From Bianqueaceae bacterium (lineage in GTDB: Bacteria > Bacillota > Clostridia > Lachnospirales > Bianqueaceae), in NCBI GenBank assembly GCA_045641505.1, contig JAZUHB010000045.1:752-64751 (forward strand): a DNA stretch of 64,000 bases. Direction: 5' to 3'. Below are positions 5,055 through 25,759 of the stretch, one piece after another (the stretch's first letter is position 1; each line of letters opens with the position of its first letter). Both the position numbers and the translations under genes were made by a program. The notes beneath the pieces are model-generated. The model ran no database searches, was not told the origin of the DNA, and saw nothing but the letters and a program-made list of their open reading frames with translations.

Positions 5055-5135
5055 TGTTTCTTGTTACTTGCGCGCACCCTGTGATGGCCGGAAACGGCCG
5101 CGGAAATACAGCGGAGCAGGAACAGGGACGCGGAC

Positions 5136-5282: not shown

Positions 5283-5375
5283 ACAGCCACCTCATGTTTT
5301 TTCGGTAGGTTTCCCAAGGGTGGGCTGCCTGTGACGCGGCCGTCCGGGAAAGGAAAAGTGACACTCAGTACAATG

Positions 5376-5430: not shown

Positions 5431-6876
5431 TTATACACCCAGGCAGGCATCGTAAAGCTTCACGAAGCGACGGTACTTCCGCTCGTACGCCTCATTCACG
5501 CGGGGAAGGTACTCCTCGCGGAAGCTGACGCAGGCGGCGCTCGCCGCGGCGAGATCCGGGAAACGGCCGGCGTCGGTCGCGGCGCAGAGGGCGGCGCCCA
5601 GGCAGGCAGCCTCCTTCTCGGCGGGGATGCGGACCGGCAGACCCGTGATGTCCGCCTGCATCTGGCACCAGAGACGGCTCTTCGCGCCGCCGCCGGTGGC
5701 AATGATGCTTTCGGGCGCGCAGCCCTTTCCGCGCAGGCATTCGCAATTCTTCCGGAGCACGAAGGCGACGCCCTCCATGACCGCGCGGGCCATGTCGACC
5801 GCGTCATGCTCCTGCCGGAGACCCCAGAAAACGCCGGTGGCGTTCGTGTCGAATTCCGGCGCGTTGGTGCCGACGATGTAGGGCAGGAAGATCAGCTGGC
5901 TCATGCCGCGCGCCTCCGCCGCCTCGTCGATCTCGCGGAGGGAGAGCTGGGGACAGCAGTTCCGGTGGAACCACTCGAGGCTCACGCCGCCGCTCTCGGC
6001 GACCGGCAGCTGCACATAGCTGTCCGGGAGGAAGCCGTAGTGCATCGCCAGGCCGCAGCTGCGGGGGGCGGGCTCCGGGCAGAGGGTGGCCATCGCCATC
6101 ACGGTGCCGGTGGAGAGGGTGATGCTGCCGGGACGGATGTTGCCCGTGCCGATCATGCCGGCGAAATGGTCCAGGGTGCCGACGTTCACGCGGGTGCCGG
6201 GGCGGATCTGGAGCCGCTGCGGAAACTCGGGCAGAAGCTCTCCCGCGAAGGTCCGGGGCTCCGTGAGGGGCGGAAGCTGGTCCTCGCGCACGCCGATGGC
6301 GCCGAGCATTTCCTTCCAGTAGCGCTTTTCGTAGATGTCGAAATAGAAGCTGAAGGTCGCGATGGACATGTCCGCCATCTTGCGGCTGGTGAGCCGGTAG
6401 ATGATGTAATCCTTCAGCAGCATGTAGGTCTTCGCGGCGGCGTAGATCCCGGGCCGCTCGTGGCGGAGCCACAGGATCTTCGTGGCGGGCCAGGTCGGGA
6501 GCACCGCCATCTGGCCGGTGACGGCCTCGCAGAGCGCCGGCGGGAAGAGGCGGCTAAGCTCCTCGCATTCCTTCACGGAGCGCTCGTCCATCCAGGAGAT
6601 CGCGTTCATGAGGGGCCGTCCGTCCGCGCCTAGGACCACCAGGGACTCCGCCTGACCGGTGAAGGAGAGCTCGGTGACCTCGGTCACGGAGTTCGCGGAG
6701 AGGAGCTCCCGCAGGAGCTCGATCAGTCCCTCGAAGTAGACCTCGGCGTCGAACTCCACGAAGCCCTGCGGCCGCAGGTACTCCACGGGGCAGCTGCTCC
6801 GGTCGATCAGGCGCATATCCCGGTCATACAGGGCAGCCTTGATGTTGGTGCTGCCCAGGTCGATTCCGATATACAT
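5431..6876 (-). CDS. FGGY-family carbohydrate kinase (xylulokinase-like)
   Basis: N-terminal YIGIDLGSTNIKA, C-terminal ATGGGAKS. 481 aa. Confidence 0.9.
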   Translation of the reverse strand: MYIGIDLGSTNIKAALYDRDMRLIDRSSCPVEYLRPQGFVEFDAEVYFEGLIELLRELLSANSVTEVTELSFTGQAESLVVLGADGRPLMNAISWMDERSVKECEELSRLFPPALCEAVTGQMAVLPTWPATKILWLRHERPGIYAAAKTYMLLKDYIIYRLTSRKMADMSIATFSFYFDIYEKRYWKEMLGAIGVREDQLPPLTEPRTFAGELLPEFPQRLQIRPGTRVNVGTLDHFAGMIGTGNIRPGSITLSTGTVMAMATLCPEPAPRSCGLAMHYGFLPDSYVQLPVAESGGVSLEWFHRNCCPQLSLREIDEAAEARGMSQLIFLPYIVGTNAPEFDTNATGVFWGLRQEHDAVDMARAVMEGVAFVLRKNCECLRGKGCAPESIIATGGGAKSRLWCQMQADITGLPVRIPAEKEAACLGAALCAATDAGRFPDLAAASAACVSFREEYLPRVNEAYERKYRRFVKLYDACLGV

Positions 6877-6877
6877 C

Positions 6878-8239
6878 TCAGTAGACGAACTCGATGTCCG
6901 CCATCGCGCAGAAGTCCCGCAGGGCCTCCACGTAGTTGCCGTAGGCCACGATCACGTGCTGGCCGGAGACGCGCTGCGCGAACTCCTCGACGGTGCAGGA
7001 GTCCGGGAAAACCTCCAGGCTGGGGAGCTGCGGCGCGGGATCGTCCCAGCCGAACTCGTTCCAGGGGGCCGGCGTCTTCGCCTCGGCGGTGTAGACGTGC
7101 ATCTTGTATCTGCCGTGCGTGTAGACCAGGCGCGCGCAGGTGACGTAGCCGGTCTTCACCTTCGAAACGTTGAGGAGCGACGCGGAGAGCAGGCCGAACG
7201 CGGCGGGCAGCACCGTGACGTCGCCCGCGGTGGCGGAGCGCGGCACGAAATCGGGCACGCCGATCAGCATGCTGTTCTCGAAGAACTCATAGTATTCCAG
7301 ATAGGGGACGGTCTGGCCGCTCACGTACTTCATGATCAGCTGAGTGACCGCGCCCATCACGTCGTTCTCGGGGATCGTAAGGATGTCGCAGTAGTGCTCC
7401 AGCAGCATGAAGACCATCGCGGGCGGGAAGCCCAGGAGCTTCTTCATGCCGTCCACGTCGATCAGGGTGATCGCCTCGAGACCGCGCTCGCGGATCTTCT
7501 TCACGATCGCCAGCGCGTATTTCACGCCCTTCTCCACGACGGAATCGTCGCAGGGCTTGCTGAAGACCCAGTTGCTCTTCACGAAGGCGACGCCCTCGGC
7601 CACCTCGGCCGCGTCGAGCGTCTCCATGTTCTGGACCATCTCGAGCATTTCGAAGGGCTCGACCTCGACGCCGATCTGGCCGCGCATGGAGTTTCCTTCA
7701 TACTGCGTGCCGTAGAGCAGCATGTCGCGGTAGCCCATGGAGCCGACGCGGGCGCCGCGCAGCTGCTTCTTCGCGTAGGAGGCCTCGACGAAGGCCTCGA
7801 TTTTGTCCAGCGGATGCGGACGGCCGATCACGCTGTAGACGTACTTGAAGCTGTAGTCCATCGCCTCCAGCGCGGGCCGGATCGCAGTGGTGCCGGCCTG
7901 ATCCGCGGTGGTGATCAGGCGGCCGTTTTCCTTCCAGCCGCAGAGACCCCACAGCAGGATGGGGAGGTGGCGGAAATGATCCAGCACGTAGATCACGGCA
8001 TGGGTGGGCACCCAGCCCGCCACACAGGCGATCACGCAGTCATAGTCGGCGGTGCCGAGCTTCGCCAGCGCGTCCTTCGCGTAGGCGTAGGCAGGGTCGT
8101 CGATGACGATGCCGGCGTCGGTCACGGGACCGATCTTTTCGCACAGGGCCGCGAGCGCCTCGTCATGCTTGAGCTGCAGGCGCTCGAAGGGGGTATTGAT
8201 CTCGCCGAAGCAGACGAATCCCACGTTTCTCATATTCAT
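6878..8239 (-). CDS. L-fucose/L-arabinose isomerase-family protein
   Basis: 453 aa with the family layout (N-terminal Rossmann-like part, C-terminal Fucose_iso_C-like part). Stop lies 1 nt from the kinase start. Confidence 0.65.
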   Translation of the reverse strand: MNMRNVGFVCFGEINTPFERLQLKHDEALAALCEKIGPVTDAGIVIDDPAYAYAKDALAKLGTADYDCVIACVAGWVPTHAVIYVLDHFRHLPILLWGLCGWKENGRLITTADQAGTTAIRPALEAMDYSFKYVYSVIGRPHPLDKIEAFVEASYAKKQLRGARVGSMGYRDMLLYGTQYEGNSMRGQIGVEVEPFEMLEMVQNMETLDAAEVAEGVAFVKSNWVFSKPCDDSVVEKGVKYALAIVKKIRERGLEAITLIDVDGMKKLLGFPPAMVFMLLEHYCDILTIPENDVMGAVTQLIMKYVSGQTVPYLEYYEFFENSMLIGVPDFVPRSATAGDVTVLPAAFGLLSASLLNVSKVKTGYVTCARLVYTHGRYKMHVYTAEAKTPAPWNEFGWDDPAPQLPSLEVFPDSCTVEEFAQRVSGQHVIVAYGNYVEALRDFCAMADIEFVY

Positions 8240-8253
8240 AGAGGATTCCTTTC

Positions 8254-9759
8254 TCAGGAGAAAAGTTTTTCGATTTCTTTCAGAGTCTCTTCCGCCAGCA
8301 TGTAGCCGCCCTCGTGGCCGACATAGCCGCTGGAGATATAGGCGGAATAGTGGCCGCCCTTCTCCGCCTTTTCGGTGGGAAGGTAGCCCAGCGCGTCACA
8401 GGAAAGCTGCACCAGGAAGGTCTGCGCGGCCTTGCTGCGGGCGCGGATCACGTTGGCGAAGTCGAGGAAGAGCTCGAAGGGGTTGGTGGCGAAGGCCAGA
8501 TCGCCGAAGCGGACCACGTGGACCTCGGAGGGCACGATGCTCTCCTTCTGCTGGACCTCGTAGCGGGCCAGCGTGCCGGCGTGGACGTGCATGCGCGCGG
8601 CCGTCTGATAGTCGACCTCCTTGCCCTTGTTCTCGACGAGGAAGCGGTCGATGACCTTCTTGGCCTCCTTGTATTCCTTCTCGGAAACGCGGCGGAGGGG
8701 CAGAGGCAGCTTGAGCGTCTCGTGCTTCAGGACCGCTTCGCCCTGAGGCTCCAGCTCCTCTTCCTCGAGGATAGCCAGAATCTCGCCGACGATGCGGCGG
8801 CCGATGCGCCAGGTGCCGGCGACGTCGAACATGGAGGGGTCGGCCCGGTGGACGGGCGGATTGGGACGCCAGATGTTCGGGTCCTCGATGGGGGTCTCGG
8901 GCTCGATCCAGCGGATCAGGTCGCGGGGGCACTGGTCGCCGGCGGGCGAGCAGAGGCCGAGCACCTTGAAGTCCTCGCCGAACTTCCGGCGGAGCAGGAT
9001 CTTCACCTTGCCCCAGTAGTCGGAGGAGATCTCGTAGCGCTGCTCCATGACCTGGGAGGGGCAGGAGAGATTGACGATCACGCCGTTCATCTTCTGCTTC
9101 TCGTCATAGGTGAAGAGAAGCTCCATGCCGTTGTCGTTGCCGCCCTCCAGGGAGAAGAAATCGTCCCGGTAGGCGTCGCCCCACATCGCGGCGTGACCGT
9201 CCTGATAGACGACGCGGCGGCACATTCCGACCGCGGCGCGGCCGAACGCGGGGGCGAAATAGCCCGGGCGGCGGCCCTGCCATGCGCGGACGATCGCGTC
9301 CGTCACCTTCTCCACCAGGAAGTCGGTGGCCTCGCGGGCGGTCATCAGACCGTCGCGCAGAATGCTGCCCTCGCCCTCCAGAGAGGCGGTCAGGCCGAGC
9401 TCGGTCGCGAGGATATCGAGGGTGGCGCCCATCGTATCGGGCGGCTCGGGGCTGAAGGAGTTATGGGTATGGGTGGCGTGGCAGATGATCTTCGAGACGT
9501 CCAGATCGGGGCAGGCCTCGGCGACCTTCTTCCGGACTTCATCCATCCAGAAGCGGTAGACCATCGTATTGTCAGTGGAGCAGATGACCAGCTGCTCGCC
9601 GTCGGATTCGACGGCCCAGGCGGTCGCGGTGATGGGGGTCTCGACGCTCTGGGAGATCCGTTCGTAGAACTGTCCCTCCAGCTTGATGCGGCGCCCGTAG
9701 GGCGTCATGTCGGTCTCGGCCCAGCCCATCTTGATCGTGCTAGCAAGAGTCTTTTTCAT
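8254..9759 (-). CDS. uncharacterised hydrolase, neutral/alkaline ceramidase N-terminal-domain-like
   Basis: GWAETDMTP...ICHATHTHNS motif pattern. Start chosen at the ATG preceded by GGAGGG; the ORF is open to 9780. Confidence 0.6.
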   Translation of the reverse strand: MKKTLASTIKMGWAETDMTPYGRRIKLEGQFYERISQSVETPITATAWAVESDGEQLVICSTDNTMVYRFWMDEVRKKVAEACPDLDVSKIICHATHTHNSFSPEPPDTMGATLDILATELGLTASLEGEGSILRDGLMTAREATDFLVEKVTDAIVRAWQGRRPGYFAPAFGRAAVGMCRRVVYQDGHAAMWGDAYRDDFFSLEGGNDNGMELLFTYDEKQKMNGVIVNLSCPSQVMEQRYEISSDYWGKVKILLRRKFGEDFKVLGLCSPAGDQCPRDLIRWIEPETPIEDPNIWRPNPPVHRADPSMFDVAGTWRIGRRIVGEILAILEEEELEPQGEAVLKHETLKLPLPLRRVSEKEYKEAKKVIDRFLVENKGKEVDYQTAARMHVHAGTLARYEVQQKESIVPSEVHVVRFGDLAFATNPFELFLDFANVIRARSKAAQTFLVQLSCDALGYLPTEKAEKGGHYSAYISSGYVGHEGGYMLAEETLKEIEKLFS

Positions 9760-9786
9760 TTTCCGACCCTCCGGTTTCATAGTATT

Positions 9787-11514
9787 TCAGTGCATGATGA
9801 TTTCGATTTCTTCCAGCTGGACGAAGAACGCGTCCTCGGTATGCTGCCAGCTCGTGCGGAGCTCCTTGAAGAAGACGCGCACGTATTTCGTGGCGACCGG
9901 CTCGAACGCGATTTCGAGCGGCGGATTCTCGTCGCGGCTGATCTCGGTCACATCGTCGGGATAGACCTGGGCCTCGACCCGAAGCTCGCCGACCTGCCGC
10001 CAGGTCTCGCCGTCATCGGAGACCTCGACCACGATGTGGCGGGGCAGTCCGTAGAGCTCGTGGAAGACCTCGTCGACCTCGTTGCGGGCGTAGAGCAGGA
10101 CCTTGTCGATCTCCCAGACGTAGGGAAGCTCGAAGACCACCCACTCGGGATAATCGGGCGAGGGCGCGCCGGTACCGGTGAGGATGGTCGCCCACTCCTC
10201 GGTGCCGAACTCGTAGTAGTTGCTCCAGCCGCCGTAGTTCAGCGTACCGTTGTTGATGCCGGCAAGGCTCCAGCCCCAGCCGGGATGCTCGCAGGAGCTC
10301 GAGGCGTAGGTGGGGACGTTCAGCGCCACGTTGTCGCCGGAGGAATACTGATCTTCCTTGATCACGTACTTCTCCAGGTCGGCCGCGGAGCCGGTGAGCT
10401 CGTAGAAGACGCGGCCGGTCGCGGTGGGCTTGAAGCCCGCGCGGGGCTCGCAGATCATGCCGTAGCGCTCCTCTCCGTCGGTGAAGAGGCGGTAGTACTG
10501 CACGGATTCGATGTAGTCGAGGGCCTTCGCCTGCGCGTAGACGTCGCGCATCCAGGCGGACGCGTCGGCATCCTGCTCCTCCGTGCCGGCGGTGAAGCCG
10601 ATCTCGGAGATGAACGCGTGGCGGCCTTCGTCGCCGTACTTCTCCGCGATGCCGTAGAGGCGCTCGCAGGCCTCGGTAAAGCCCGCGCCGGGGTTCTCGT
10701 CGAAGGCGAAATCCCAGGCCAGCGCGCCGAAGAAATCGTCCACATTCGCGGAGCCGCGCTCGCCGCCGGTGATTTCGGCGTAGAGGGCGTCGAGATACTC
10801 GGCCGCCTCCTCGGAGGCCGCGTCGGAGAAATCAGGCAGGATCACGAGGGCACGGCTGCCGGCCTCGCGGAGTCCCTTCGTCACGCGGAAGCAGATATCC
10901 GCGGTAATCTGGGCCTTTTCCTCGACGGAATAGCCGGGAACGGGGGATTTCTCCTCCTTCCAGCCCATCGGATGCAGATACAGGTCCTCGTTCAGATGAT
11001 GGCCGATCTGCCAGTACTCCACCTCGGAGTACTCGCTGCCCAGAAGCTTCGCCATCGCCTCGACCTCGTCGAGGAAGGAGAGATACTCGCCGTCCTCAAG
11101 GTCCGGTTCGGGGCTGTAATGGCCCAGAACGCCCTCCAGCGGCAGCATCGCCTGCTGGACCACCACCTGGTCGATGCCCGAGTAGAGCAGGGACTGGCAG
11201 AGGCCGTGGAGACGGGTGCGGGCGTCCTCGGAAAAGGTCGTCGCAGTCTCCAGGCAATAGGCGCAGATCCGGACGCTCTCCGCGCCCAGGGCCATGGCCA
11301 TGTAGGCCACCTGGGCGGTGGAGAGACGGTCGCTCATCTGGGCCTCCACGTAGTTCAGACCGTAGAGATAATGCTCGGTGCGGAGGATCTTCTCCTCGCC
11401 GGATTCCTCCTGCGGCAGGACCGAGCCGCTCTCTTCGCCGGTGCCGGGCTTACAGCCGGCCAGGCAGCCGAGGAGCAGGGAGAGCGCCAGCAGAAGCGCT
11501 AAGCTTTTCTTCAT
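9787..11514 (-). CDS. lipoprotein: clan GH-A-like (beta/alpha)8 domain fused to a C-terminal F5/8 type C (discoidin) domain
   Basis: Lipobox LLGCLAGC. Paralogous to the next two genes (FISEIGFTAG nucleophile-like motif). C-terminus has WVVFELPYVWEIDKVLLY...ATKYVRVFF. Confidence 0.8.
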   Translation of the reverse strand: MKKSLALLLALSLLLGCLAGCKPGTGEESGSVLPQEESGEEKILRTEHYLYGLNYVEAQMSDRLSTAQVAYMAMALGAESVRICAYCLETATTFSEDARTRLHGLCQSLLYSGIDQVVVQQAMLPLEGVLGHYSPEPDLEDGEYLSFLDEVEAMAKLLGSEYSEVEYWQIGHHLNEDLYLHPMGWKEEKSPVPGYSVEEKAQITADICFRVTKGLREAGSRALVILPDFSDAASEEAAEYLDALYAEITGGERGSANVDDFFGALAWDFAFDENPGAGFTEACERLYGIAEKYGDEGRHAFISEIGFTAGTEEQDADASAWMRDVYAQAKALDYIESVQYYRLFTDGEERYGMICEPRAGFKPTATGRVFYELTGSAADLEKYVIKEDQYSSGDNVALNVPTYASSSCEHPGWGWSLAGINNGTLNYGGWSNYYEFGTEEWATILTGTGAPSPDYPEWVVFELPYVWEIDKVLLYARNEVDEVFHELYGLPRHIVVEVSDDGETWRQVGELRVEAQVYPDDVTEISRDENPPLEIAFEPVATKYVRVFFKELRTSWQHTEDAFFVQLEEIEIIMH

Positions 11515-11517
11515 CGC

Positions 11518-12900: not shown

Positions 12901-12912
12901 GGTTGGTCTCCT

Positions 12913-15601: not shown

Positions 15602-15622
15602 GGTTCTCGGGACCTTTCGGTT

Positions 15623-16414: not shown

Positions 16415-16418
16415 GATT

Positions 16419-19400
16419 TCAGTCCTCTTTCTTACGTTTTCCGATCAGGACGAAGAGCAGGACGAGCAGGCCCGCACCGACGGTGCCGACGCCCCAGATC
16501 CAGCCCTTGCCGCCCTTCTCGCCGGGCTCGGAGCCCTGAGACTCCTCGCCGCCGCCCTGAGATTCCTCGGGGGCCTCGGATTCCTCGGTGATCTTGGACT
16601 CCTCGACGGGCTCGGACTCGTTCTCGCTGTCCTCGGTGCTCTCCTCGGCGGGAATGTTGTCGTAGGGATTCAGGAACTCGCTTTCATCCGGAGGAGGCGG
16701 CAGCTGCACGTCGTCCGCCAGCTGATCCCGGGAGACCAGATAGCCGTAGAACTGCAGCTCGCGGAGCGCGGCGACGAAGCCGAGGTCGCAGGCCTCCAGC
16801 ACGGAGTAGAAGTGGACGCGCAGGTAGCGGCATTCCGCGGTCGTGAAGCGGAAGTTGTACCAGCCGCTGTCGGTGACCGCCGTATTGTTGTTGGTGTAGA
16901 GGGTCTTCCAGGTCTTGCCGTCGAGGGAGCCTTCCACGGTGAATCTCTTGGGAACGCCGAGGCCGGCGCCCTTCCACCAGGACTCGAACTTCATGCGGCC
17001 GACCTTGTAGATGCCGTCCAGACGGATCAGCAGGTAGGTATCGGTGGCGTTCTCGAAGGTCTTGCTTCCCTTGAAGCGGGCGTAGTAGTCGGCATCCTCC
17101 TCGGTGGTGGCGATGAAGAGGTATTCGCTGCGGTCCTCATCGTAGAGCGCGCCGGTGCCGTGGCCCCAGAGGCCGTAGGACTGATTCGCGCGGATGAGCG
17201 CCTTGGTAAGGTCGATCTTGTCGCCGTAGAGCGCGTCGAGCGCGGCAGGATCGGCGTTGCCGTAGAGCCGGAGCTCGGAGAGCACCGCGCATAGGCCGAG
17301 CTCGGCGCTCGCGGCCTCATCGACGCCGTTGACCGTGATCTTCACGTAGCGGACGCCTTCGGTGTAGCGGGACGGGAAGGCGTACCAACGGCCGTCGCCG
17401 TTCGCGAGGCTCACGTTGTTCTTCTGCACGGCGGTATGCCACTCGGTGCCGTCCAGGGAGACGCTCACGGTGAACTGGCTGGGCAGACCCTTCAGACTGT
17501 TCTCCTCCATGGAGGCGAAGCGCACGTACTGGATGTCGTAGGCGGTCTTCAGGTCGATGGTGATGGTGTTGTTCAGACGCGCGACGGGGCCGGTGATGCT
17601 GGAGTCCGCGGTCGCGAAGGTGCTGTAGTTGCCGATGCTGCCGTCGATCAGGGCCGCGGCGCCCCAGCCCCACATCTCGTAGGACTTGGAGGCGGTGACG
17701 ACATCCTGAGGATAACCGGTAGCCCAGGTGTAGTTGATGCCTTCGCCGGCCTTCCAGGTATCGATGTCGCGGACGTAGGAGCGGAGATCGATCTTGGAGG
17801 AGCCGTTGTAGACCTCGAATTCGCGCAGGTTGACGGTGTAGCCGATGTTGGGATCGCCGTCGCCGCCGACGTTGCGCACATAGATGCGGACGTAGCGGGC
17901 CGAGACGCTGCTGAAGCTGAAGCGGTAGTACTGCAGATCCTCGACGTCATAGACGTCCACGCTGCTCACGGTCTTCACGGTGGTCCAGCTGGAGCCGTTG
18001 TTGGAGACCTGGATGTCGAAGTCGACGGGGAAGCCGCCGAGATCGCCGCGGCGGAAGGACGCCAGGCGGATGGAGTTGAAGGTACGGGTGGTCTTCAGGT
18101 CGAGGCGGACCCAGGCGGGCGTCATGCCGGCACTGGGACGGCCGTCGTTCTTCTTGGCGATGAAGAGGGTGCCGAAATCGTTGTCGAAGAGGTTCTTCAG
18201 GCTGTTCGACACGAACTGCTCGGTGGCGGAGACGGAGGCCCTTCTCAGGTCGATCTCGTTGCCGTAGTTGACCTCCTCGTGGTTGACCTTCTCGCCGCAG
18301 ACCTGGAACTCACGCAGGCAGACGTACGGGCCGACGTCGCAGGGCGCGCCGACCGCCATGACGTTCATGCGGACGTAGCGGGCTTCGATCTCAGGGAAGG
18401 CAACCTCGTTCTTCAGCGTGCCGTCGGGATTGAAGTGGGCGTTGTGCTTCAGGGCGACTCTCGTCCAGTTGGTGCCGTCCTTGGAGACCTCCACGGAGAA
18501 CTGCAGGGGAAGACCCTGGTCGGCGCCGATGGCGTAGTTGTAGTAGATGAGCTTGTTGACCTTGTAGACTTCCTGCAGGTCGAGCTTGATCCACAGGTCG
18601 TTCACCGCGGTGCCAACCTCGGATTCCGCCACGCCGATGTAGCGGCCCTCACCGCCCCAGCTGCCGTCGATCAGGTTCGCGATGCCGAGGCCCCAGTTCT
18701 CGTAGGAATGGTTAGAGGTAATGACGTTCTGAGTGAAGTTGGAAGCGTTGCCGGAGTTGAGGCCAGCCACGAAATCGGTAAGGTCGATCACGGGCAGCTC
18801 GCGGTACTCGAAGGACTCCTGCGGCTCGTCGGGCTCTTCCTCGCTGCTCTCGGACTCGGGCTCGCTCTCGGGCTCGCCGGGATTCAGCGCTTCGCCGCAG
18901 ATCTGGAGCTCGTTCAGGCAGAGGTAGTCGCCCTGGTCGCCGGCGGCCTCGAGAGCCGTGACGTTCAGGCGGACGTAGCGGGCGTTCACTTCGTCGAAGA
19001 AGAAGCAGTTCGCACCGGTGGTGTTATCGGTGTTATGGGTGTAGCCGGTCTTGGTGAGAACCGTCGTCCAGTTCTCGCCATCCTCGGAGACCTCCACGGT
19101 GAAGTCAGTGGGGAAGCCGTTGCCGGCGCCGAACATGAAGCTGTGGAGGATGATCTCGTTGATCTTGTAGTCGTCCAGCAGATCCACGCGGATCCAGGTC
19201 GGCCAGTTGCTCACGCCGCCGGCGATGTCCGCGTCGGTCGCGCCGATGTAGCGGGAAGCCGCGCTGGCGTTGCCGTCGATCAGGTTCGCGATGCCGAGAC
19301 CCCAGTTCTCATAGGAATGGTTGGAGGTGATGACGCTCTGGGCGAAATTGGAGGCGCTGACCATGCCCTCGAGCGCGCCGGAAAGATCGATCACGTCATA

Positions 19401-22373
19401 CTGGGTAGGCGTGACGACGGTGCCGGGCAGCTCGCCGCAGACCTGGAACTCACGCAGGCAGACGTAGTTGCCGACGTCGCAGGGCGCGCCTACCGCCTGC
19501 ACGTTCATGCGGACGTAGCGGGCATCGGTCTCCGCGAAGGTGAATTCGCGCTTCAGCGTGCCGTCCTCGTTGTAGGTGACGTTCGTCTTGGTCAGCACGG
19601 TGGTCCAGGCGGTTCCGTCCTCGGAAACCTCGAAGGTGAAGTCGGCGGGGATGCCCTGATCGGAACCGATGGCATAGGTGTAGAAGATGAAGCGGTTCAG
19701 CGTGTAGACCTCCTGCAGATCCATATGGATCCACAGATTGGTCACTGCGGTGCCGACTTCGGACTCGGCCGCGCCGACATAGCGGCCGCTGCCGGACCAG
19801 TCACCGTCGATCAGGTTCGCGATACCAAGACCCCAGTTCTCGTAAGAATGGTTGGAGGTGATGATGCTCTGCGGGAAGTTGGAAGCGTTGCCGGCGTTGA
19901 GGCCGCCCACGAAGCTGCTGAGGTCGATCACGGGCAGATTGCGGGCCTCGGGCTCGCTCTCAGGCTCGGATTCGGACTCGGACTCGGGCTCGCTCTCGGA
20001 CTCGGGTTCGCTCTCGCTCTCGGGCTCGGATTCGGGTTCGCTCTCGGATTCGGGTTCGGAGCTGGGCTCGCTCTCGGGCTCGGATTCGCTCTCCTCCGTT
20101 CCGACTGCGTAGCCGTAGGGGAAGAAGCCGCGCATGCCGAAGTAGCAGCCGGAACCGCCGGGCGCGGAGCCGGTGATGTGCATGCGGATGAACTGCGCCT
20201 GCATCGGAACGAGCAGGTAGCTGCGGAGAGTCTCGGCGTTGGAGTCGCCGGTCACGGTGCAGACCGTGGTCCAGTTCACGCCGTCTTCGGAAACATCGAA
20301 GGTGTAGTCGGTGGGGTAATAGGTCGGATCCGCCTCGGAGGGCCAGGTCTCGACGCGCTCGACGACGTACTCGCCGTCGAACTGGAAGACCACGTCACCG
20401 GTGCCCTGGTTCGTATAGCAGCCGGAACCCCAGGTGTCGTTGGTGAGGTTTTCCTTCACGGTGGACCAGATCTCCGTGCCGGGCACGGCGATACAGGTAG
20501 AGGGAATCAGCGCGGTGGCGGGATGGGGCTCGCTCTCCGGCTCGGACTCGGGCTCGGATTCGGGTTCGGATTCGGACTCGGGCTCGGACTCAGGCTCGCT
20601 CTCAGACTCGGGCTCGCTCTCAGGCTCGCTCTCAGGCTCGCTCTCGGACTCGGGCTCGCTCTCAGGCTCGGAGGACTCTTCTTCATCCGCGGGCACGCCG
20701 CAGACGGTGAATTCGTTCAGGCACAGGCGGTTGCCCTGGTCGCCGTCGGCCTCGAGGGCCGTCACGTTCAGGCGGATGTAGCGGGCTTCCGTCTCAGGGA
20801 AGATCAGCTCGTTGGCATTGGTCGTGCCGTCAGAGGTATGGACATAGCCGGTCTCGGTGCGGACCGTGGTCCAGGTCACGCCGTCCTCGGAGACCTCGAT
20901 CGTGAAGTCAGCGGGGAAGCCGTTGCCGGCGCCGTTGATGTAGCTGCGGAGGATCAGGCGGTTGACCGCGTACACCTCCTGCATATCCATCAGGATCCAG
21001 GTGGGCAGGGTGTTCACGCCGCCGGCGATCTCCGCGTCGGAGCCCGCGATGTAGCGGGTGGAGGGATCGTTGTCGATCAGGTTCGCGATGCCCAGACCCC
21101 AGGCTTCATTGGAGTGGTTGGAGCTGATGATGCTCTGCGCGAAGCCGGAAGCGGAGGTCATGCCGGCCAGGTAGCCGGTGAAGTCGATGGCGGGCAGCTC
21201 GCGGTAGGGACGGGACTCCTCACCGGACTCGGGCTCGGACTCGGGCTCGGAGGATTCCTCCTCGGTCGGAATCTCACCGCAGACGGTGAATTCGTTCAGG
21301 CACAGGCGGTTGCCCTGGTCGCCGTCAGCCTCGAGGGCCGTCACTTCCAGGCGGATGTAACGGGCTTCCGTCTCAGGGAAGATCAGCTCGTTGGCGTTGG
21401 TCGTGCCGTCAGAGGTATGGACGTAGCCGGTCTCGGTGCGGACCGTGGTCCACTCCGTGCCGTCCTCGGAAACCTCGATCGTAAAGGCGGAGGGGAAGCC
21501 GGCGCCGGAGCCGTTCATGAAGCTGCGGAGGATCAGGCGGTTGACCGCGTAAATCTGCTGCAGATCCACCAGAATCCAGGTGGGCAGGGTGTTCACGCCG
21601 CCGGCGATCTCCGCGTCGGAACCCGCGATGTAGCGGGTGGAGGGATCGTTGTCGATCAGGTTCGCGACGCCCAGACCCCAGGCTTCGTTGGAGTGGTTGG
21701 TGCTGATGACGCTCTGCGCGAAACCGGAGGCGGAGGTCATGCCGGCCAGCGCGCCGGAAAGGTCGATGGCGGGCAGCTCGCGGTAGGGACGGGGCTCCTC
21801 GCCGGACTCGGGCTCGGACTCGGGCTCGGACTCAGACTCAGGCTCGGATTCGGGCTCGGAAGTCTCTTCCGCCACGGGAACTCCGTAGGCAAACATGCCG
21901 CGAAGGTCCAGAACCGCGCCGGCGTCACCGGCCAGCGGCGCCGTGATGTGCATGCGCAGATATCGGCCCTCCGTGGGCGTGAACGTATAGTTACGTTCAT
22001 AGGAATCATTCGCGTCGTCAGTCACGGAGAAGACCGTGACCCAGGTCGTACCGTCCTCGGACAGGTCGAAGCTGTAGTCCTTCGGATAGTAGAGACCGTA
22101 GTTTTCCGCGGGCCAGGTCATGACCCGGTCGACCGTGTACAGGCTTCCGAAATCCAGCACGATGTCGCCTGTCACGGTAGCGGAAACCGAAGCGCTCGAC
22201 CAGTCAGAGTCAGTCAGACTGCCAAGTGTTCCGCCCCAGATCATGTCTCCGGGGAAGGCGATGCAGGTCGCATCGATCTGCGCGGAATCCGCGGCGACGT
22301 CGGCCGCCCGGAGACCGGACAGGGTGCTGAGGATCAACGTGCTGCAAAGCAGCATGGCCAGCACTTTTTTCAT
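16419..22373 (-). CDS. 1,984-aa surface protein: signal peptide, ten F5/8 type C (discoidin/CBM32-like) domains, (SEPE)n linkers, C-terminal TM anchor
   Basis: Ten repeats of the pattern W(I/V)x(V/L)DL...F(T/S)(I/V)EVS.DG..W(T)TV...ARY(V/I)R(L/M)...L.E(F/L)x(V/I)(C/Y)G. C-terminus GWIWGVGTVGAGLLVLLFVLIGKRKKED with no LPXTG. Confidence 0.9.
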   Translation of the reverse strand: MKKVLAMLLCSTLILSTLSGLRAADVAADSAQIDATCIAFPGDMIWGGTLGSLTDSDWSSASVSATVTGDIVLDFGSLYTVDRVMTWPAENYGLYYPKDYSFDLSEDGTTWVTVFSVTDDANDSYERNYTFTPTEGRYLRMHITAPLAGDAGAVLDLRGMFAYGVPVAEETSEPESEPESESEPESEPESGEEPRPYRELPAIDLSGALAGMTSASGFAQSVISTNHSNEAWGLGVANLIDNDPSTRYIAGSDAEIAGGVNTLPTWILVDLQQIYAVNRLILRSFMNGSGAGFPSAFTIEVSEDGTEWTTVRTETGYVHTSDGTTNANELIFPETEARYIRLEVTALEADGDQGNRLCLNEFTVCGEIPTEEESSEPESEPESGEESRPYRELPAIDFTGYLAGMTSASGFAQSIISSNHSNEAWGLGIANLIDNDPSTRYIAGSDAEIAGGVNTLPTWILMDMQEVYAVNRLILRSYINGAGNGFPADFTIEVSEDGVTWTTVRTETGYVHTSDGTTNANELIFPETEARYIRLNVTALEADGDQGNRLCLNEFTVCGVPADEEESSEPESEPESESEPESEPESEPESESEPESEPESESEPESEPESEPESEPHPATALIPSTCIAVPGTEIWSTVKENLTNDTWGSGCYTNQGTGDVVFQFDGEYVVERVETWPSEADPTYYPTDYTFDVSEDGVNWTTVCTVTGDSNAETLRSYLLVPMQAQFIRMHITGSAPGGSGCYFGMRGFFPYGYAVGTEESESEPESEPSSEPESESEPESEPESESEPESESEPESESESEPESEPEARNLPVIDLSSFVGGLNAGNASNFPQSIITSNHSYENWGLGIANLIDGDWSGSGRYVGAAESEVGTAVTNLWIHMDLQEVYTLNRFIFYTYAIGSDQGIPADFTFEVSEDGTAWTTVLTKTNVTYNEDGTLKREFTFAETDARYVRMNVQAVGAPCDVGNYVCLREFQVCGELPGTVVTPTQYDVIDLSGALEGMVSASNFAQSVITSNHSYENWGLGIANLIDGNASAASRYIGATDADIAGGVSNWPTWIRVDLLDDYKINEIILHSFMFGAGNGFPTDFTVEVSEDGENWTTVLTKTGYTHNTDNTTGANCFFFDEVNARYVRLNVTALEAAGDQGDYLCLNELQICGEALNPGEPESEPESESSEEEPDEPQESFEYRELPVIDLTDFVAGLNSGNASNFTQNVITSNHSYENWGLGIANLIDGSWGGEGRYIGVAESEVGTAVNDLWIKLDLQEVYKVNKLIYYNYAIGADQGLPLQFSVEVSKDGTNWTRVALKHNAHFNPDGTLKNEVAFPEIEARYVRMNVMAVGAPCDVGPYVCLREFQVCGEKVNHEEVNYGNEIDLRRASVSATEQFVSNSLKNLFDNDFGTLFIAKKNDGRPSAGMTPAWVRLDLKTTRTFNSIRLASFRRGDLGGFPVDFDIQVSNNGSSWTTVKTVSSVDVYDVEDLQYYRFSFSSVSARYVRIYVRNVGGDGDPNIGYTVNLREFEVYNGSSKIDLRSYVRDIDTWKAGEGINYTWATGYPQDVVTASKSYEMWGWGAAALIDGSIGNYSTFATADSSITGPVARLNNTITIDLKTAYDIQYVRFASMEENSLKGLPSQFTVSVSLDGTEWHTAVQKNNVSLANGDGRWYAFPSRYTEGVRYVKITVNGVDEAASAELGLCAVLSELRLYGNADPAALDALYGDKIDLTKALIRANQSYGLWGHGTGALYDEDRSEYLFIATTEEDADYYARFKGSKTFENATDTYLLIRLDGIYKVGRMKFESWWKGAGLGVPKRFTVEGSLDGKTWKTLYTNNNTAVTDSGWYNFRFTTAECRYLRVHFYSVLEACDLGFVAALRELQFYGYLVSRDQLADDVQLPPPPDESEFLNPYDNIPAEESTEDSENESEPVEESKITEESEAPEESQGGGEESQGSEPGEKGGKGWIWGVGTVGAGLLVLLFVLIGKRKKED
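19945..20095. repeat. coding microsatellite-like array (GGCTCGGACTCG-type 6/12-nt units) encoding (SEPE)n
   Basis: Seen directly. Encodes SESEPESEPSSEPESESEPESEPESESEPESESEPESESESEPESEPE. Confidence 0.9.
20527..20680. repeat. second long (SEPE)n-coding array in the giant gene
   Basis: Seen directly. Shorter arrays also at ~18825-18880, 21230-21270 and 21795-21860. Confidence 0.9.
20696..21790. repeat. tandem ~580-bp duplication inside the giant gene (discoidin domains 2 and 3)
   Basis: 20701-21220 aligns base for base with 21281-21800, with scattered substitutions (roughly 90-95% identity by eye). Confidence 0.85.
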
Positions 22374-22392
22374 GTCGTTTTCCTCCTGAAAT

Positions 22393-23304
22393 TTATTCTT
22401 TCACTGAACCGATGGTAATACCTTTATTAAAATATCCTTGCACGAAGGGATATACCAAGAGGATCGGGATGATGGTGACGATCAGCGCCGCCATCTGGAT
22501 CGAGATCTTCGAGACCTTGGTCACGTCGTAGTCGCCGAAGGCCGAGAGGTCGTCCTGGATCAGCATCTCGCGGAGCACGTTCTGGATCAGGTATTTCTTC
22601 TTGTCCTTCACGAAGAGGACCGCGGAGAACCAGTTGTTCCAGACGCCGACGCCGTTGAAGAGCGCCATGGTCGCGATGATGGGCTTGGAGAGCGGGAACA
22701 CGATCCGGAAGAGGATCGTCAGGTACGGAGCGCCGTCGATGACGGCCGCCTCCTCCAGGCTGTGCGGCAGCGCGTTGATGAAGTTCTTCATCAGGATCAC
22801 GGTGTAGGGCGCGACGACGCCGGGCAGGATGTAGACCAGCACCTTATCGGTGAGCTTCAGGCTGTCAATCAGCAGGTAGAAGGGGATTGTACCGCCGGAG
22901 AAGAGCATCGCGAAGGTGAAGATGAAGAGCAGCGCCGTGCGGCCGGGCAGATCGTGATGCGAAAGCACGAAGGCCGCCGCCATGCACAGCAGGATGTGGA
23001 GCGTGGTGTTCGCCGCGACCACGAAGAGCGTGAGGCCCGTGGCGCGGAGCACCTCCTTGTTGAACAGGATCTTGTACGCGTCGAACTGGAGCCCGCGCGG
23101 GAAGATCATCATCGGCTCCGCGATCGTGGACGCGTAATCCGAAAGCGACAGGGAGATGATGTTCATGAAGGGGATCACGATGACCAAAAGCAGCAGGATC
23201 ATGAAGAAATAGATGATCGCGTCGCCCACGCCGAAGCGCTCGGTCTTCGCGGCGGGCGACTGCTGGACGCCCTCCTCTTCGCGGAAACGTCTTTTCTTTA
23301 CCAT
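22393..23304 (-). CDS. carbohydrate ABC transporter permease (LplC/BPD_transp_1 type)
   Basis: Six hydrophobic helices and an EAA-loop-like SLEEAAVIDGA. Overlaps the upstream permease stop. Confidence 0.9.
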   Translation of the reverse strand: MVKKRRFREEEGVQQSPAAKTERFGVGDAIIYFFMILLLLVIVIPFMNIISLSLSDYASTIAEPMMIFPRGLQFDAYKILFNKEVLRATGLTLFVVAANTTLHILLCMAAAFVLSHHDLPGRTALLFIFTFAMLFSGGTIPFYLLIDSLKLTDKVLVYILPGVVAPYTVILMKNFINALPHSLEEAAVIDGAPYLTILFRIVFPLSKPIIATMALFNGVGVWNNWFSAVLFVKDKKKYLIQNVLREMLIQDDLSAFGDYDVTKVSKISIQMAALIVTIIPILLVYPFVQGYFNKGITIGSVKE

Positions 23305-24239
23305 AAGCCCTCACCTCCCAGCTTGTCGGCGATCTTGTTCGTGATCACGATCAGGATCAGGCCGATGACGGATTTGACGAGGCCCAGGGCCGTGGCGACT
23401 TCGAAGTTGCCGGAGACGAGACCCATGCGGTACACGTAGGTATCGATGATGTCCGCGGTGTCGTAGACGACGGCCGAGTAAAGATTGAAGATCTGGTCGA
23501 AGCCGGCGCTCAGGATACCGGAGATCGAAAGGATCAGGTTGATGGAGATGGCCATCGACAGACAGGGCAGCGTCACGTAGCGCATCTTCTGCCAGCGGTT
23601 CGCGCCGTCCACCGTCGCCGCCTCGTAGAGGGTCGGGTCGATGCCTGCAATCGCGGCCATGTAGATGATGCTGCCGTAACCCATGTCCTTCCAGATGGCG
23701 CTGATGATCAGCGCGAAGATGAACCAGTTCGGGTCGGTCAGGAAGGGGATGCCCTTGCCGCCCAGCGACTTGATCAGCGAGTTGATCATGCCGTCGCCGC
23801 TCATCATCGTGCGGACGATGCCGGCCACGACGATCCAGGAGAGGAAGTAGGGCAGGTAGACCGCGGTCTGCACGGTCTTCTTGAAGCGGGGATGACGGAT
23901 CTCGTTGAGAAACAGGGCCAGAAGGATCGGGGCCGGGAAGCCGAACACGAGCCGCAGCACGCTGATGCGGATGGTGTTCAGGGTGACCTTCCAGAAATCG
24001 GTGCCGCCGAGGGCGGACCGGAAGTGCTTGAAGAGGGGTTGGACGAAGTCGCTGTACCACATGCCGAGGCGCGGCGAGTAGTCCTTGAAGGCGATGATGA
24101 TGCCGCCCATCGGCAGATACGAGAAGACGATCAGGGAGATGAGCGGGGGCAGGAGGATCAGGTAGAGCGGAAGATACTTGCGGAACTTCCGCCAGCCAGC
24201 GCCCTTTGCCCGGGCAGGTCTTTCGGCTTTTTGTTTCAT
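23298..24239 (-). CDS. carbohydrate ABC transporter permease (LplB type)
   Basis: EAA-loop-like LYEAATVDGANRWQK. 313 aa polytopic. Confidence 0.9.
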   Translation of the reverse strand: MKQKAERPARAKGAGWRKFRKYLPLYLILLPPLISLIVFSYLPMGGIIIAFKDYSPRLGMWYSDFVQPLFKHFRSALGGTDFWKVTLNTIRISVLRLVFGFPAPILLALFLNEIRHPRFKKTVQTAVYLPYFLSWIVVAGIVRTMMSGDGMINSLIKSLGGKGIPFLTDPNWFIFALIISAIWKDMGYGSIIYMAAIAGIDPTLYEAATVDGANRWQKMRYVTLPCLSMAISINLILSISGILSAGFDQIFNLYSAVVYDTADIIDTYVYRMGLVSGNFEVATALGLVKSVIGLILIVITNKIADKLGGEGLW

Positions 24240-24279
24240 TGCTTACCTCGCGGAAAGGGTTCTCGCGAACCCGTTTTCT

Positions 24280-25029
24280 TTATTCGAACCCCCGGGGCGT
24301 GAAAGGGCCCCAGATGTCGGAAAGGAAGTCGCAGGCGTCGGCGGTCCAGCCGGGAAGGCGGGAGCAGCCGGGCGCAATCTGAAGGTAGGGCTCACCGGTG
24401 GTGAAGCCGTGCTCGCCGCGGACGTACATGTGGAGCTCGCAGGGGATCTGCGCCTTCACCAGCGCAGCGGCCCAGTCGAGGCCGTTCTGCGGCGCGATCA
24501 TGCTGTCGTCCGCCGCCATGAAGACGAAGGAAGGCGGCGTGTCGGGGCCGACCGCCTCGAGCGGCCGGGGCAGCCCGGGCAGGCAGAAATCGCAGGCCTC
24601 GGGCAGGATCACGGGGTAGCCGAGGACCGTCGCCGCGGGCTTTTCTTCGAGCAGCACGCTCGCGCAGGCGGCGAGATGGGCGCCGGCGGAGAAGCCGCAG
24701 AGGGCGATCCGGTCGGGATCGGTGTGCCATTCGTCCCGCTTCGCGCGGATCAGGCGGAGCGCCGCGTCGGTCTCCTCAAGGGGCTGCGGCCAGATGGGCG
24801 AGCCGTCCTTCGAAACGGAATAGCGCAGGATGTAGGCCTGAAAGCCCGCCTTCGCGAAGCAGAGCGCTACGGGCTCGGCCTCGCGGTCGGAAAGCATCCG
24901 GTAGCCGCCGCCCGGCAGGACCAGCACGGCGGGACGCTCGCGGACGGCGCCGTAGAGGCCGCCCACGTCCTGAAGCAGGGCACTGAGCCTCGCGCCCCGT
25001 TCGTTCAGCTCGATATTTTCGTATCTCAT
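24280..25029 (-). CDS. alpha/beta-hydrolase esterase (acetyl-esterase-like)
   Basis: LVLPGGGY oxyanion region and nucleophile elbow GFSAGAH. 249 aa. Confidence 0.8.
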   Translation of the reverse strand: MRYENIELNERGARLSALLQDVGGLYGAVRERPAVLVLPGGGYRMLSDREAEPVALCFAKAGFQAYILRYSVSKDGSPIWPQPLEETDAALRLIRAKRDEWHTDPDRIALCGFSAGAHLAACASVLLEEKPAATVLGYPVILPEACDFCLPGLPRPLEAVGPDTPPSFVFMAADDSMIAPQNGLDWAAALVKAQIPCELHMYVRGEHGFTTGEPYLQIAPGCSRLPGWTADACDFLSDIWGPFTPRGFE

Positions 25030-25040
25030 AGGCTTAAGCT

Positions 25041-25589
25041 TCAGTTCAGCGGAATGATGACTTCGCGGAAGCCCTGGACGTCGTAGACGTAGTGGAAATC
25101 GACGGGGACGAAGTCCTCGGGCAGCGCGAAGACCGCGACGAGCTCGATCGTCTCGCCGGGCGCGATGGCCTGTCCCAGGAGGCTGTTGCCCTCGAGGTCA
25201 TAGATTTCGGTCAGATAGCTGGTGTGCTTGGTGGCGTCGCGCAGACGGAAGCGGTTCTTCGCCTCGAGGCCCTGGCCTTTTTTCTCGTCCTCGGTGCAGC
25301 GAAGGCTGAGCCGGAGCTCGGCGCGGCCGGGCTCATAGACGTAGGAATGGATCGTGACGCGGTAGCCCTCGGTGCCGAATTCCTGCTCCAGGAAGGCGTA
25401 GACGGACTCCTCGCTCTCCTCGGACTCGGGTTCGCTCTGGGCGGTGCTTTCGGCGACGGACTCCTCGGTGCTCTCAGACACGGGCGGCTCGCTCTCCTGC
25501 GGCCCCGGCGCGATGCAGGCGCAGAGTGACAGGGTAAAAAGGGACACTAAAAACAGGGCTGACAGCTTCACCTGGGTATTATGCTTCAC
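25041..25589 (-). CDS. hypothetical lipoprotein (acidic stalk plus ~110-aa beta-rich domain)
   Basis: Start set at the GTG preceded by GAGAGGAG; the track ORF extends to 25634. Signal KLSALFLVSLFTLSLCAC. Confidence 0.55.
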   Translation of the reverse strand: MKHNTQVKLSALFLVSLFTLSLCACIAPGPQESEPPVSESTEESVAESTAQSEPESEESEESVYAFLEQEFGTEGYRVTIHSYVYEPGRAELRLSLRCTEDEKKGQGLEAKNRFRLRDATKHTSYLTEIYDLEGNSLLGQAIAPGETIELVAVFALPEDFVPVDFHYVYDVQGFREVIIPLN

Positions 25590-25649
25590 GGAACGAGACT
25601 CCTCTCGGGGAAGATTTTCAGAACAAAAAAACACGATGGGATTGAGGAC

Positions 25650-25683: not shown

Positions 25684-25759
25684 TTTTCGAAAACCTAAAA
25701 TTTGTTCAAAAAGTTTCGAAACTTTTTTCAGCGTGTTTTTTCGAAAAAATTTTCGAAAG
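25684..25759. promoter_or_regulatory. cluster of four TTTCGAAA-centred palindromes (candidate operator sites)
   Basis: 25684-25693 TTTTCGAAAA; 25708-25727 AAAAAGTTTCGAAACTTTTT (20-bp perfect palindrome); 25736-25749 TTTTTTCGAAAAAA; 25751-25758 TTTCGAAA. Confidence 0.45.

Follow-up and report, generated by a model that had tools for sequence, protein, structure and literature searches.

What is an unbroken run of minus-strand genes for, when it encodes twelve F5/8 type C (discoidin) modules, an importer and several hydrolase-like proteins, and how would its products work together? The run occupies positions 5431-25634 of a 64,000-nucleotide stretch of contig JAZUHB010000045.1 (positions 752 to 64,751, forward strand; assembly GCA_045641505.1) from a Bianqueaceae bacterium of the Clostridia, which by its nearest relatives is an uncultured, Oscillospiraceae/Eubacteriales-like gut bacterium; this whole 64-kb stretch, with a G+C content of ~63%, is called the window below. 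We propose, with a probability of roughly 0.7, that the run is a Gram-positive polysaccharide utilization locus (gpPUL) that captures, cuts, imports and catabolizes a single complex glycan, which is most likely O-acetylated and may come from plants. A gpPUL has been defined as a locus combining at least one enzyme that degrades polysaccharide, a system for carbohydrate transport and a regulator of transcription (PMC5320581). The locus fits this definition, enzyme activity being predicted: a transport system and a LacI-family regulator are present, and the enzyme is represented by predicted glycoside hydrolase (GH) clan GH-A-type folds and motifs. An earlier note on this DNA had seen in it an analogue of a polysaccharide utilization locus (PUL); that likeness is sound under the published definition, and the design as such is not a new concept.

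The listing of open reading frames (ORFs), their translations and the gap arithmetic give a chain of 13 genes that fills ~99% of the span with coding sequence. The intergenic gaps are 1, 14, 27, 3, 12, -8, 21, 4, 19, -7, 40 and 11 nt, computed after two starts had been corrected: that of the ceramidase-like gene to M8, whose 501-aa product is identical to entry P0049 of the protein collection, and that of the cytoplasmic GH-A-like gene to 14040, whose 375-aa product also has an exact match there. The single-strand run, its gaps of -8 to 40 nt and the gene order that the earlier note had described are borne out. Its figure of 15 genes is wrong for this span and is reached only by adding the upstream genes for the LacI-family regulator and an AP_endonuc_2 protein, both beyond a 195-nt gap. 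A sequence scan found no minus-strand terminator-like or promoter-like site above chance within the run, and a weak short hairpin with a T-run (5442-5425) overlaps the kinase stop codon at the operon end. From this layout, co-transcription of all 13 genes is plausible.

The twelve F5/8 type C modules (Pfam PF00754), the number that the earlier note had counted, are distributed as ten stretches in a 1,984-aa protein (490 bits), one in a 263-aa lipoprotein (52.6 bits) and one in a 575-aa lipoprotein (29.0 bits, barely over the 28.2 cutoff); all are homologous in a multiple alignment. In the 1,984-aa protein the modules D1-D10 cover residues 25-166, 196-367, 391-560, 617-757, 810-981, 988-1161, 1188-1361, 1368-1523, 1526-1706 and 1716-1878, with boundaries drawn by eye from the translation and the number ten given independently by Pfam. 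They comprise a subtype A (D1 and D4, 44% identical), a subtype B (D2/D3, 89% identical; D6; D5/D7, 73%) and the divergent D8-D10, and the single modules of the 263-aa and 575-aa proteins are set apart from these subtypes. F5/8 type C modules of the carbohydrate-binding module (CBM) type CBM32 commonly bind galactose, N-acetylgalactosamine or N-acetyllactosamine, and a NedA-like galactose-binding Pfam model also matches all the discoidin modules of the operon. The large protein has a signal peptide, (SEPE)n acidic linkers encoded by 12-nt repeats, and a C-terminal transmembrane (TM) helix with a basic KRKKED tail; neither an LPXTG motif nor a catalytic domain was found in it (Pfam, translation), and phmmer returned no PDB sequence match at E < 1e-5. 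Its length varies among syntenic loci (791 aa in the Bacillota metagenome-assembled genome (MAG) SUG1232), and this variation and the 89% identity of D2 and D3 suggest that modules are still being duplicated. Lipoboxes (LAGC, LSGC, VAGC) occur in the solute-binding protein and the 263-aa, 460-aa and 575-aa proteins, and probably in the small first protein, whereas five products are without a signal peptide (esterase, 375-aa paralogue, ceramidase-like protein, isomerase and kinase), which matches the surface, importer and cytoplasm split drawn in the earlier note. The 263-aa lipoprotein is predicted from its sequence to be a binder beside the importer.

The predicted cutting enzymes are three paralogues of 460, 375 and 575 aa. 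An alignment-based AlphaFold2 (AF2) model of the 460-aa protein has a confident catalytic domain with eight β/α units (mean predicted local distance difference test, pLDDT, 86), preceded by disordered residues 24-80 in an acidic linker of ~80 aa. Foldseek against PDB matched this model to PslG of GH39 (E 1e-13, 17-18% identity) and to dozens of GH1 enzymes (E ~1e-12 to 1e-11), with probability 1.00 for GH39 and GH1 structures and an overall identity of 12-18%. A profile search against PDB aligned, over a partial stretch and at E 4e-5, the TE(x)G motif of the family with the GH1 nucleophile motif TENG; searched against PDB sequences, the 460-aa product and the 508-aa product of the ceramidase-like ORF with its uncorrected start gave nothing significant. 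In the 460-aa protein GNEWNH follows β4 and the invariant Glu367 (TEMGY) lies on β7, and this placing of an Asn-Glu after β4 and a Glu on β7 is that of clan GH-A. In every syntenic locus, the orthologues of the 460-aa and 375-aa proteins keep both catalytic Glu residues, as do these two proteins themselves. The GH-A-like label put on these proteins from the letters alone is thereby supported by fold and motifs: they share with PslG (GH39), GH1 and GH5 the (β/α)8 barrel, the Asn-Glu after β4 and the Glu nucleophile on β7, and differ from the clan's families in their 12-18% identity and in the loss of the acid/base from one paralogue lineage.

Weak Pfam matches within the family alignment go to DUF5722 (14/36), Cellulase (GH5; 8/36) and Glyco_hydro_cc (8/36), with a best E of 1e-9. 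In a collection of 5.8 billion proteins 48 relatives turned up, a few with the label 'cellulase family', and a profile re-search of that collection with alignment A1 gave 35 matches and almost no additions. A full HMMER scan with the catalytic-domain alignment over 1.84 billion representatives of 50%-identity clusters yielded 241 at E ≤ 1e-30 and 394 at E ≤ 1e-10; by this sequence measure the family is small (~240 clusters). It is present in 41 loci among 185,579 species genomes, some contributing more than one locus, and its carriers are almost all gut Clostridia MAGs (goat, roe deer, sheep, chicken, human), with a few Planctomycetes and one Sphingobacterium. Elsewhere the enzyme domain is fused to five discoidin modules (P0184) or to two plus PKD domains (P0237), and a distant member carries a dockerin (P0188). 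The description of the locus as built around discoidin modules thus gains from other proteins of the same enzyme family, and the recurrent pairing supports the modules as binding partners for the substrate of the GH-A-like family. More distant members lie in tandem beside similar ABC importers. At least seven tandem GH-A-like copies occur on one 12-kb contig of the Clostridia MAG SGB_1572 (L029), and DUF5696 proteins (867-868 aa) adjoin distant members in L007 (with GH95 and GH65) and in L049 (with GH36, GH78 and GH127). Literature searches returned nothing relevant on DUF5722, nor on CBM32 together with a new GH family.

Much of the operon recurs elsewhere as a cassette of conserved order: small lipoprotein, two permeases, multi-discoidin protein, one-discoidin lipoprotein, solute-binding protein, and then the cytoplasmic, lipoprotein and discoidin-fused GH-A-like paralogues. 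It is found in a second assembly of the same organism (L001), in SUG1232 (L002-L004, L006), in a Eubacteriales MAG (L005) and in Oscillospiraceae RGIG3008 from goat rectum (L008). In SUG1232 a different ceramidase-fold gene (32% identity, weak PF04734 match) stands at the cassette head, with no isomerase or kinase, and at least three lineages, those of the window, SUG1232 and L009, combine the GH-A-like family with a ceramidase-fold protein.

The tail of the operon encodes a 501-aa protein, an isomerase-like protein and a kinase. The AF2 model of the 501-aa protein (pLDDT 81; predicted template-modelling score, pTM, 0.87) finds in PDB only the neutral ceramidases 2ZWS, 2ZXC and 4WGK, with E 1e-20 to 1e-21, a query template-modelling score (TMq) of 0.62-0.65 and 13-15% identity, the next PDB match having E 3e-3. 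The ceramidase fold stands, in keeping with the 'ceramidase-like hydrolase' of the earlier note, and family membership and amidase chemistry remain putative. The protein has no Pfam or NCBIfam match, PF04734 not being reached, and 17/31 relatives match PF04734 weakly, with a best E of 1.4e-4. Like the neutral ceramidases of P. aeruginosa (2ZWS) and human (4WGK), it has the catalytic-domain fold and the A-T-H-T-H metal/catalytic motif; unlike them, it lacks the C-terminal immunoglobulin-like domain (501 aa against 630-670), is predicted to be cytoplasmic and sits in a soluble-sugar gene context. Its family comprises more than 3,700 clusters, all unnamed 'hypothetical' and mostly from Clostridia and Oscillospiraceae. 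Literature searches found nothing relevant joining ceramidase with PUL, GH or FGGY. The isomerase-like protein scores 25.0 bits with Fucose_iso_C (cutoff 29.3), E 0.006 with AraA, E 0.19 with FucI in PDB and 42.9 bits with SftI. The SftI-like matches raised sulfoquinovose as a substrate, which was dropped with the cutoff at 700 bits. The kinase has clear FGGY_N (151.7 bits) and FGGY_C (109.7 bits) matches, and its 323 bits with the xylulokinase equivalog do not reach the cutoff of 380.

Relatives of the 501-aa protein at 52-60% identity sit in DeoR-regulated operons, together with a FucI-like isomerase (48-49% identical to that of the window), an FGGY kinase, an archaeal-type TIM-like protein, a KpsF-type SIS protein, YjbQ and sometimes a fructose-6-phosphate-aldolase-type (FSA-type) enzyme; such conserved operons, present in many gut Clostridia, are exemplified by L051, L053 and L055, plus 15-16/37 loci among L057-L136. 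Across 37 metagenomic loci of at least 8 kb, each with a relative of the 501-aa protein, the kinase occurs in 16, the TIM-like protein in 16, the isomerase in 15, SIS in 13, YjbQ in 12, DeoR in 10 and an MR_MLE dehydratase in 4, the last mostly with an aldolase of the 2-keto-3-deoxy-6-phosphogluconate (KDPG) type, while the GH-A-like family is found in 0/37 and a related permease in 1/37. The fold is also seen beside a LacI regulator, a binding protein and a metallo-β-lactamase-fold protein, with GH106 and GH39, and among 2-keto-3-deoxy-sugar-acid genes. In L056, L104, L114, L117, L118 and L120 it adjoins an MR_MLE sugar-acid dehydratase, with a KDPG-type aldolase in most, and a DGOK-type kinase is detected in L056 and L120. 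Both contexts together imply that the ceramidase fold accompanies isomerase-type and oxidative sugar routes. We know of no described pathway that combines a ceramidase-fold protein with an FGGY kinase, a FucI-like isomerase, SIS, a TIM-like protein and YjbQ. By these gene neighborhoods, the ceramidase-like, isomerase and kinase genes form a widespread soluble-sugar module that would have been grafted onto the capture cassette. Both genes of the isomerase-plus-kinase ending that had been described earlier are in place, and that ending is better seen as an appended three-gene module that includes the ceramidase-fold gene. Most economically, we infer that the ceramidase fold performs a cytoplasmic hydrolysis that releases or unmasks an aldose before isomerization.

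The remaining genes are consistent with uptake and first processing. The importer set consists of an SBP_bac_1 lipoprotein, with no NCBIfam match, and two BPD_transp_1 permeases (Pfam). No ABC ATPase motif or gene was found within the window, and Gram-positive sugar importers habitually share an ATPase encoded elsewhere, a habit that this absence fits. Below their cutoffs, models of arylesterase, pectin acetylesterase and acetylxylan esterase also match the cytoplasmic esterase, which is predicted to de-O-acylate imported oligosaccharides. The small first lipoprotein probably starts inside its annotated GTG start, and its C-terminal ~80 aa are conserved at the cassette head, with 33-50% identity in L002-L007 and L009 (tblastn). 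The 195-nt gap upstream of the operon is AT-rich and looks like a promoter/operator region, and the second gene upstream, on the same strand, is that of the LacI-family regulator. Across the window, 8 copies of the palindrome TTTCGAAA are present where 0.93 would be expected, a count that no shuffle reached: four copies lie in this gap near a candidate promoter (-35 TTGCAA / 17 / -10 TAAACT), two (27784-27809) overlap a promoter-like site of the LacI gene, and the remaining copies are at 26477 and 41260. This distribution suggests that the LacI protein may regulate both its own gene and the operon through TTTCGAAA, a candidate operator.

From the observed gene order, domains, folds, motifs, synteny and co-occurrence we infer the following course of events. 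The membrane-anchored ten-discoidin protein would span the wall on its acidic linkers and bind the polymer multivalently, the 460-aa lipoprotein would cleave it at the surface, and the 575-aa paralogue would either hold the chain as an enzyme-derived binder or cleave a linkage that needs no general acid. The 263-aa lipoprotein and the lipoprotein solute-binding protein would hand the oligosaccharides to the two-permease ABC importer, energized by an ATPase from elsewhere. In the cytoplasm, the esterase would strip acyl groups and the 375-aa enzyme would cut the oligosaccharides; an unmasking hydrolysis by the ceramidase-fold metallohydrolase would then leave a free aldose, which the FucI-like isomerase and the FGGY kinase may convert into a ketose phosphate, the upstream LacI protein probably controlling the operon through the palindromes. 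As for the substrate, an esterase of the acetyl/feruloyl type suggests an O-acylated glycan, and the neighbors of distant family members (GH43, GH127, GH78, GH36, a GDSL esterase, GH95 and GH65) suggest plant-wall side-chain sugars or fucosylated glycans. With low confidence we name an acetylated complex plant glycan, with host or microbial glycans as the alternative.

Several points weigh against this reading. No enzyme of the operon falls in a family of known specificity (Pfam, NCBIfam), so the substrate cannot be read off, and none of the three GH-A-like paralogues has a Pfam match above the gathering score or any NCBIfam match; the earlier note had likewise found neither substrate nor GH family evident from the letters. 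The plant-glycan guess is a weak one, drawn from the neighbors of distant members and the type of esterase. Genes for the isomerase and kinase are missing from the syntenic cassettes and hence accessory, and the isomerase-like protein, all of its matches being sub-cutoff, would be at most a distant relative of FucI/AraA. In the family profile of the 501-aa protein, ATHTH (HxH) aligns with the ceramidase ATHTH, the first metal-binding motif and the sole one compared. Neutral and alkaline ceramidases bind Zn through His, His, Glu and Tyr; the 501-aa family is highly conserved, HxH being invariant along with many acidic, His, Tyr and Cys residues, of which the Cys residues hint at a site different from that of ceramidase. 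Moreover, TTTCGAAA does not have the usual arrangement of LacI operator half-sites. A last point concerns the 575-aa protein, in which the acid/base Asn-Glu has become His-His and the preceding Trp-Glu has become Trp-Gln, with the nucleophile Glu (SEIGF) kept.

The acid/base position of the 575-aa lineage reads HH in the window and NL, NQ and NL in the other syntenic orthologues. Conserved in three other lineages, the loss is, as judged from the aligned sequences, no sequencing accident. The three hydrolases of the earlier note therefore do share the GH-A-like barrel, and this one, without a general acid/base, may not be an ordinary hydrolase: it may be an enzyme-derived binder, or a retaining glycosidase needing no general acid. 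That it is a catalytically dead glycan binder of the SusE/F type, which would leave the locus with two hydrolases, has in our view a little less than an even chance. Its own discoidin module and the loss in all four orthologues, accompanied by the WE to WQ change, argue for this, as the other two paralogues keep both residues in every locus; yet the retained nucleophile and most other invariant residues suggest selection on catalysis, GH1 myrosinase is a known retaining enzyme without an acid/base, and the protein of the window has an Asn-Glu pair three residues further downstream (GHHLNE).

The target itself might be host or microbial glycoconjugates (mucin O-glycans, bacterial or fungal exopolysaccharide), with the ten-discoidin protein doubling as a mucus or cell adhesin. 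The galactose-type preferences of CBM32 modules and the NedA-like matches would suit such ligands, as would the animal-gut origin of almost all carriers and a GH95 fucosidase beside GH-A-like enzymes in a human-gut relative. PslG, the best structural match, cuts bacterial exopolysaccharide, but at 17-18% identity this is uninformative on specificity, the operon contains no sialidase, GH20, GH29, GH33, GH84 or GH101-type gene (Pfam, NCBIfam), and distant loci hold the plant-type GH43, GH127 and GH78; we consider such a target rather unlikely. The association of the ceramidase fold with the GH-A-like family in at least three lineages, together with the weak GH5 matches of some members, could also be taken to mean breakdown of glycosphingolipids or N-acylated glycoconjugates, the GH-A-like proteins acting like GH5 endoglycoceramidases and the ceramidase-fold protein splitting the acyl-amide. 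This is very unlikely: that protein lacks a signal peptide, an ABC importer of this type does not carry lipids, the protein's relatives mostly accompany soluble-sugar enzymes (isomerase, FGGY kinase, TIM-like, SIS, aldolase or dehydratase), the ceramidase C-terminal domain is missing, and PF04734 matches no more than 17/31 of its relatives, and those weakly. Finally, the capture cassette and the sugar-catabolic module may be two unrelated adjacent units, perhaps expressed separately, inasmuch as the trio occurs alone elsewhere, is missing where the syntenic cassettes end and is represented in SUG1232 by a different ceramidase-like gene at the front. We regard this as distinctly improbable, given gaps of 1-27 nt, the lack of any promoter- or terminator-like site where the trio follows the 575-aa gene, the same junction in the second assembly of the organism (L001), and the inclusion of a ceramidase-fold gene in the cassette of other lineages too.

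Taken as a gpPUL, the locus resembles those of Roseburia and Eubacterium rectale (PMC5320581) in its predicted surface glycanase(s), its ABC importer with a lipoprotein solute-binding protein, its predicted cytoplasmic glycosidase and esterase, its monomer genes, its LacI/AraC-type regulator and the use of CBMs for binding in place of SusD. It differs from them in that its glycosidases lie outside the families searched (Pfam, NCBIfam), with no CAZy family recognizable, that binding resides on a separate non-catalytic ten-module protein and a one-module lipoprotein and not on enzyme CBMs alone, that the cassette includes a ceramidase-fold enzyme, and that the triplet is split between surface, surface without acid/base, and cytoplasm. 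With the Sus-like PULs of Bacteroidota it shares surface binding, coarse cutting outside, oligosaccharide import, finishing inside and a single regulator; unlike theirs, its host has no outer membrane and its importer is of the ABC type, and no SusC/TonB-dependent transporter or SusD Pfam domain occurs in the 13 products or their neighbors. The long, cell-anchored, multi-module, non-catalytic protein with acidic linkers recalls cellulosomes and amylosomes, and the earlier note had spoken of a cellulosome-like device; its repeats, however, are putative carbohydrate binders and not docking modules, the enzymes are lipid-anchored, and none of the 13 products contains a cohesin or dockerin (Pfam), on which ground a cellulosome-type assembly is rejected. 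CBM32-rich enzymes of Clostridium perfringens and bifidobacteria likewise carry several F5/8 type C modules on surface proteins for glycan foraging, with the difference that theirs are attached to known GH domains and the ten modules here to no catalytic domain.

The overall design is thus what would be expected of gut Firmicutes, and the enzymes and the ceramidase-fold family are a good lead for new families. In animals and humans much of the dietary fibre is broken down by gut Firmicutes, most of whose glycan loci are unreadable, their enzymes being unclassified. This operon offers a candidate clan GH-A family with matching CBMs, an acid/base-less paralogue, a ten-module capture protein and a large ceramidase-fold family, and once its substrate were assigned, several hundred enzyme clusters would be annotated, along with several thousand 'hypothetical' proteins of rumen, livestock and human gut metagenomes. 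We also advance, tentatively and as somewhat doubtful, a further proposal: that the ceramidase-fold protein is the entry enzyme of an undescribed pathway for a soluble sugar or sugar conjugate, and that the GH-A-like triplet is a new GH family with a fixed division of labor (surface, surface without acid/base, cytoplasmic). If true, this would be the first non-lipid role for the ceramidase fold, and the member without the acid/base would serve either as a lectin derived from an enzyme or as a glycosidase acting on a linkage whose leaving group activates itself.

Table. Features of the operon and of its upstream region in the window.
Feature	Position	Strand	Basis or remark
Small lipoprotein, first gene	25041-25634	-	197 aa from GTG; no Pfam/NCBIfam match
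Esterase, cytoplasmic alpha/beta-hydrolase (BD-FAE / Abhydrolase_3)	24280-25029	-	Pfam; no signal peptide
ABC importer permease 1 (BPD_transp_1)	23298-24239	-	Pfam
ABC importer permease 2 (BPD_transp_1)	22393-23304	-	Pfam
Ten-discoidin surface protein, 1,984 aa	16419-22373	-	Pfam, signal peptide, C-terminal TM
Ten F5/8 type C modules of the 1,984-aa protein	16740-22301	-	Alignment; boundaries by eye
C-terminal membrane anchor of the ten-discoidin protein (WIWGVGTVGAGLLVLLFVLIGKRKKED)	16422-16505	-	Translation
Lipoprotein with one F5/8 type C module, 263 aa	15623-16414	-	Pfam, lipobox
Lipoprotein solute-binding protein (SBP_bac_1), large oligosaccharide-type, 522 aa	14033-15601	-	Pfam, lipobox
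Cytoplasmic GH-A-like enzyme (predicted), 375 aa	12913-14040	-	GNELNH acid/base motif, SEYGY nucleophile motif
Lipoprotein GH-A-like enzyme (predicted), 460 aa	11518-12900	-	Lipobox, linker, (β/α)8 model, GNEWNH, TEMGY
Lipoprotein GH-A-like barrel with C-terminal F5/8 type C module, 575 aa	9787-11514	-	Pfam, alignment
Cytoplasmic protein with neutral-ceramidase catalytic-domain fold, 501 aa	8254-9759	-	AF2 model, Foldseek, HxH motif
Distant relative of FucI/AraA-type aldose-ketose isomerases, at most, 453 aa	6878-8239	-	Sub-cutoff family matches
FGGY carbohydrate kinase, last gene	5431-6876	-	FGGY_N/FGGY_C; xylulokinase model closest
Xylose-isomerase-like TIM-barrel protein (AP_endonuc_2), upstream neighbor	25830-26747	-	Pfam
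LacI-family regulator	26744-27757	-	Pfam
Four TTTCGAAA palindromes and candidate promoter, candidate operator	25685-25758	.	Motif count

Downstream of the kinase, the next real gene encodes an APH-type phosphotransferase (3799-4899). The 141-aa ORF that lies between them (4939-5364) has no family match and is probably not a gene; inside it, at 5022-5053, is a strong bidirectional hairpin of 13 bp with A-/T-run flanks.

Further along the window, positions 29023-43668 hold a second capture-type locus on the minus strand, with a divergent AraC regulator. It encodes a lipoprotein with a Glyco_hydro_cc-like barrel (41090-42310; ISNEPN and ITEFSY motifs), a second FucI-like isomerase (39676-41079) that is SftI-like at E 1e-35 yet far below cutoff, a binding protein, two permeases, a GH2 enzyme (33978-36143) and two surface proteins (32632-33954 and 31801-32619) with SEPE linkers, C-terminal TM anchors and an unrecognised repeated domain, and it ends with HAD, GDPD and EamA genes. 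A low-GC island at 44000-48000 (0.45-0.46 against ~0.63) adjoins a 1,563-aa RHS-repeat protein (47599-52290), and together they are probably a horizontally acquired toxin/immunity region. Beyond it lie genes for an 832-aa GH31 enzyme (52930-55428) and a zinc-type alcohol dehydrogenase (56705-57994), which, with the SftI-like isomerase of the second locus, faintly recall sulfoquinovose pathways.

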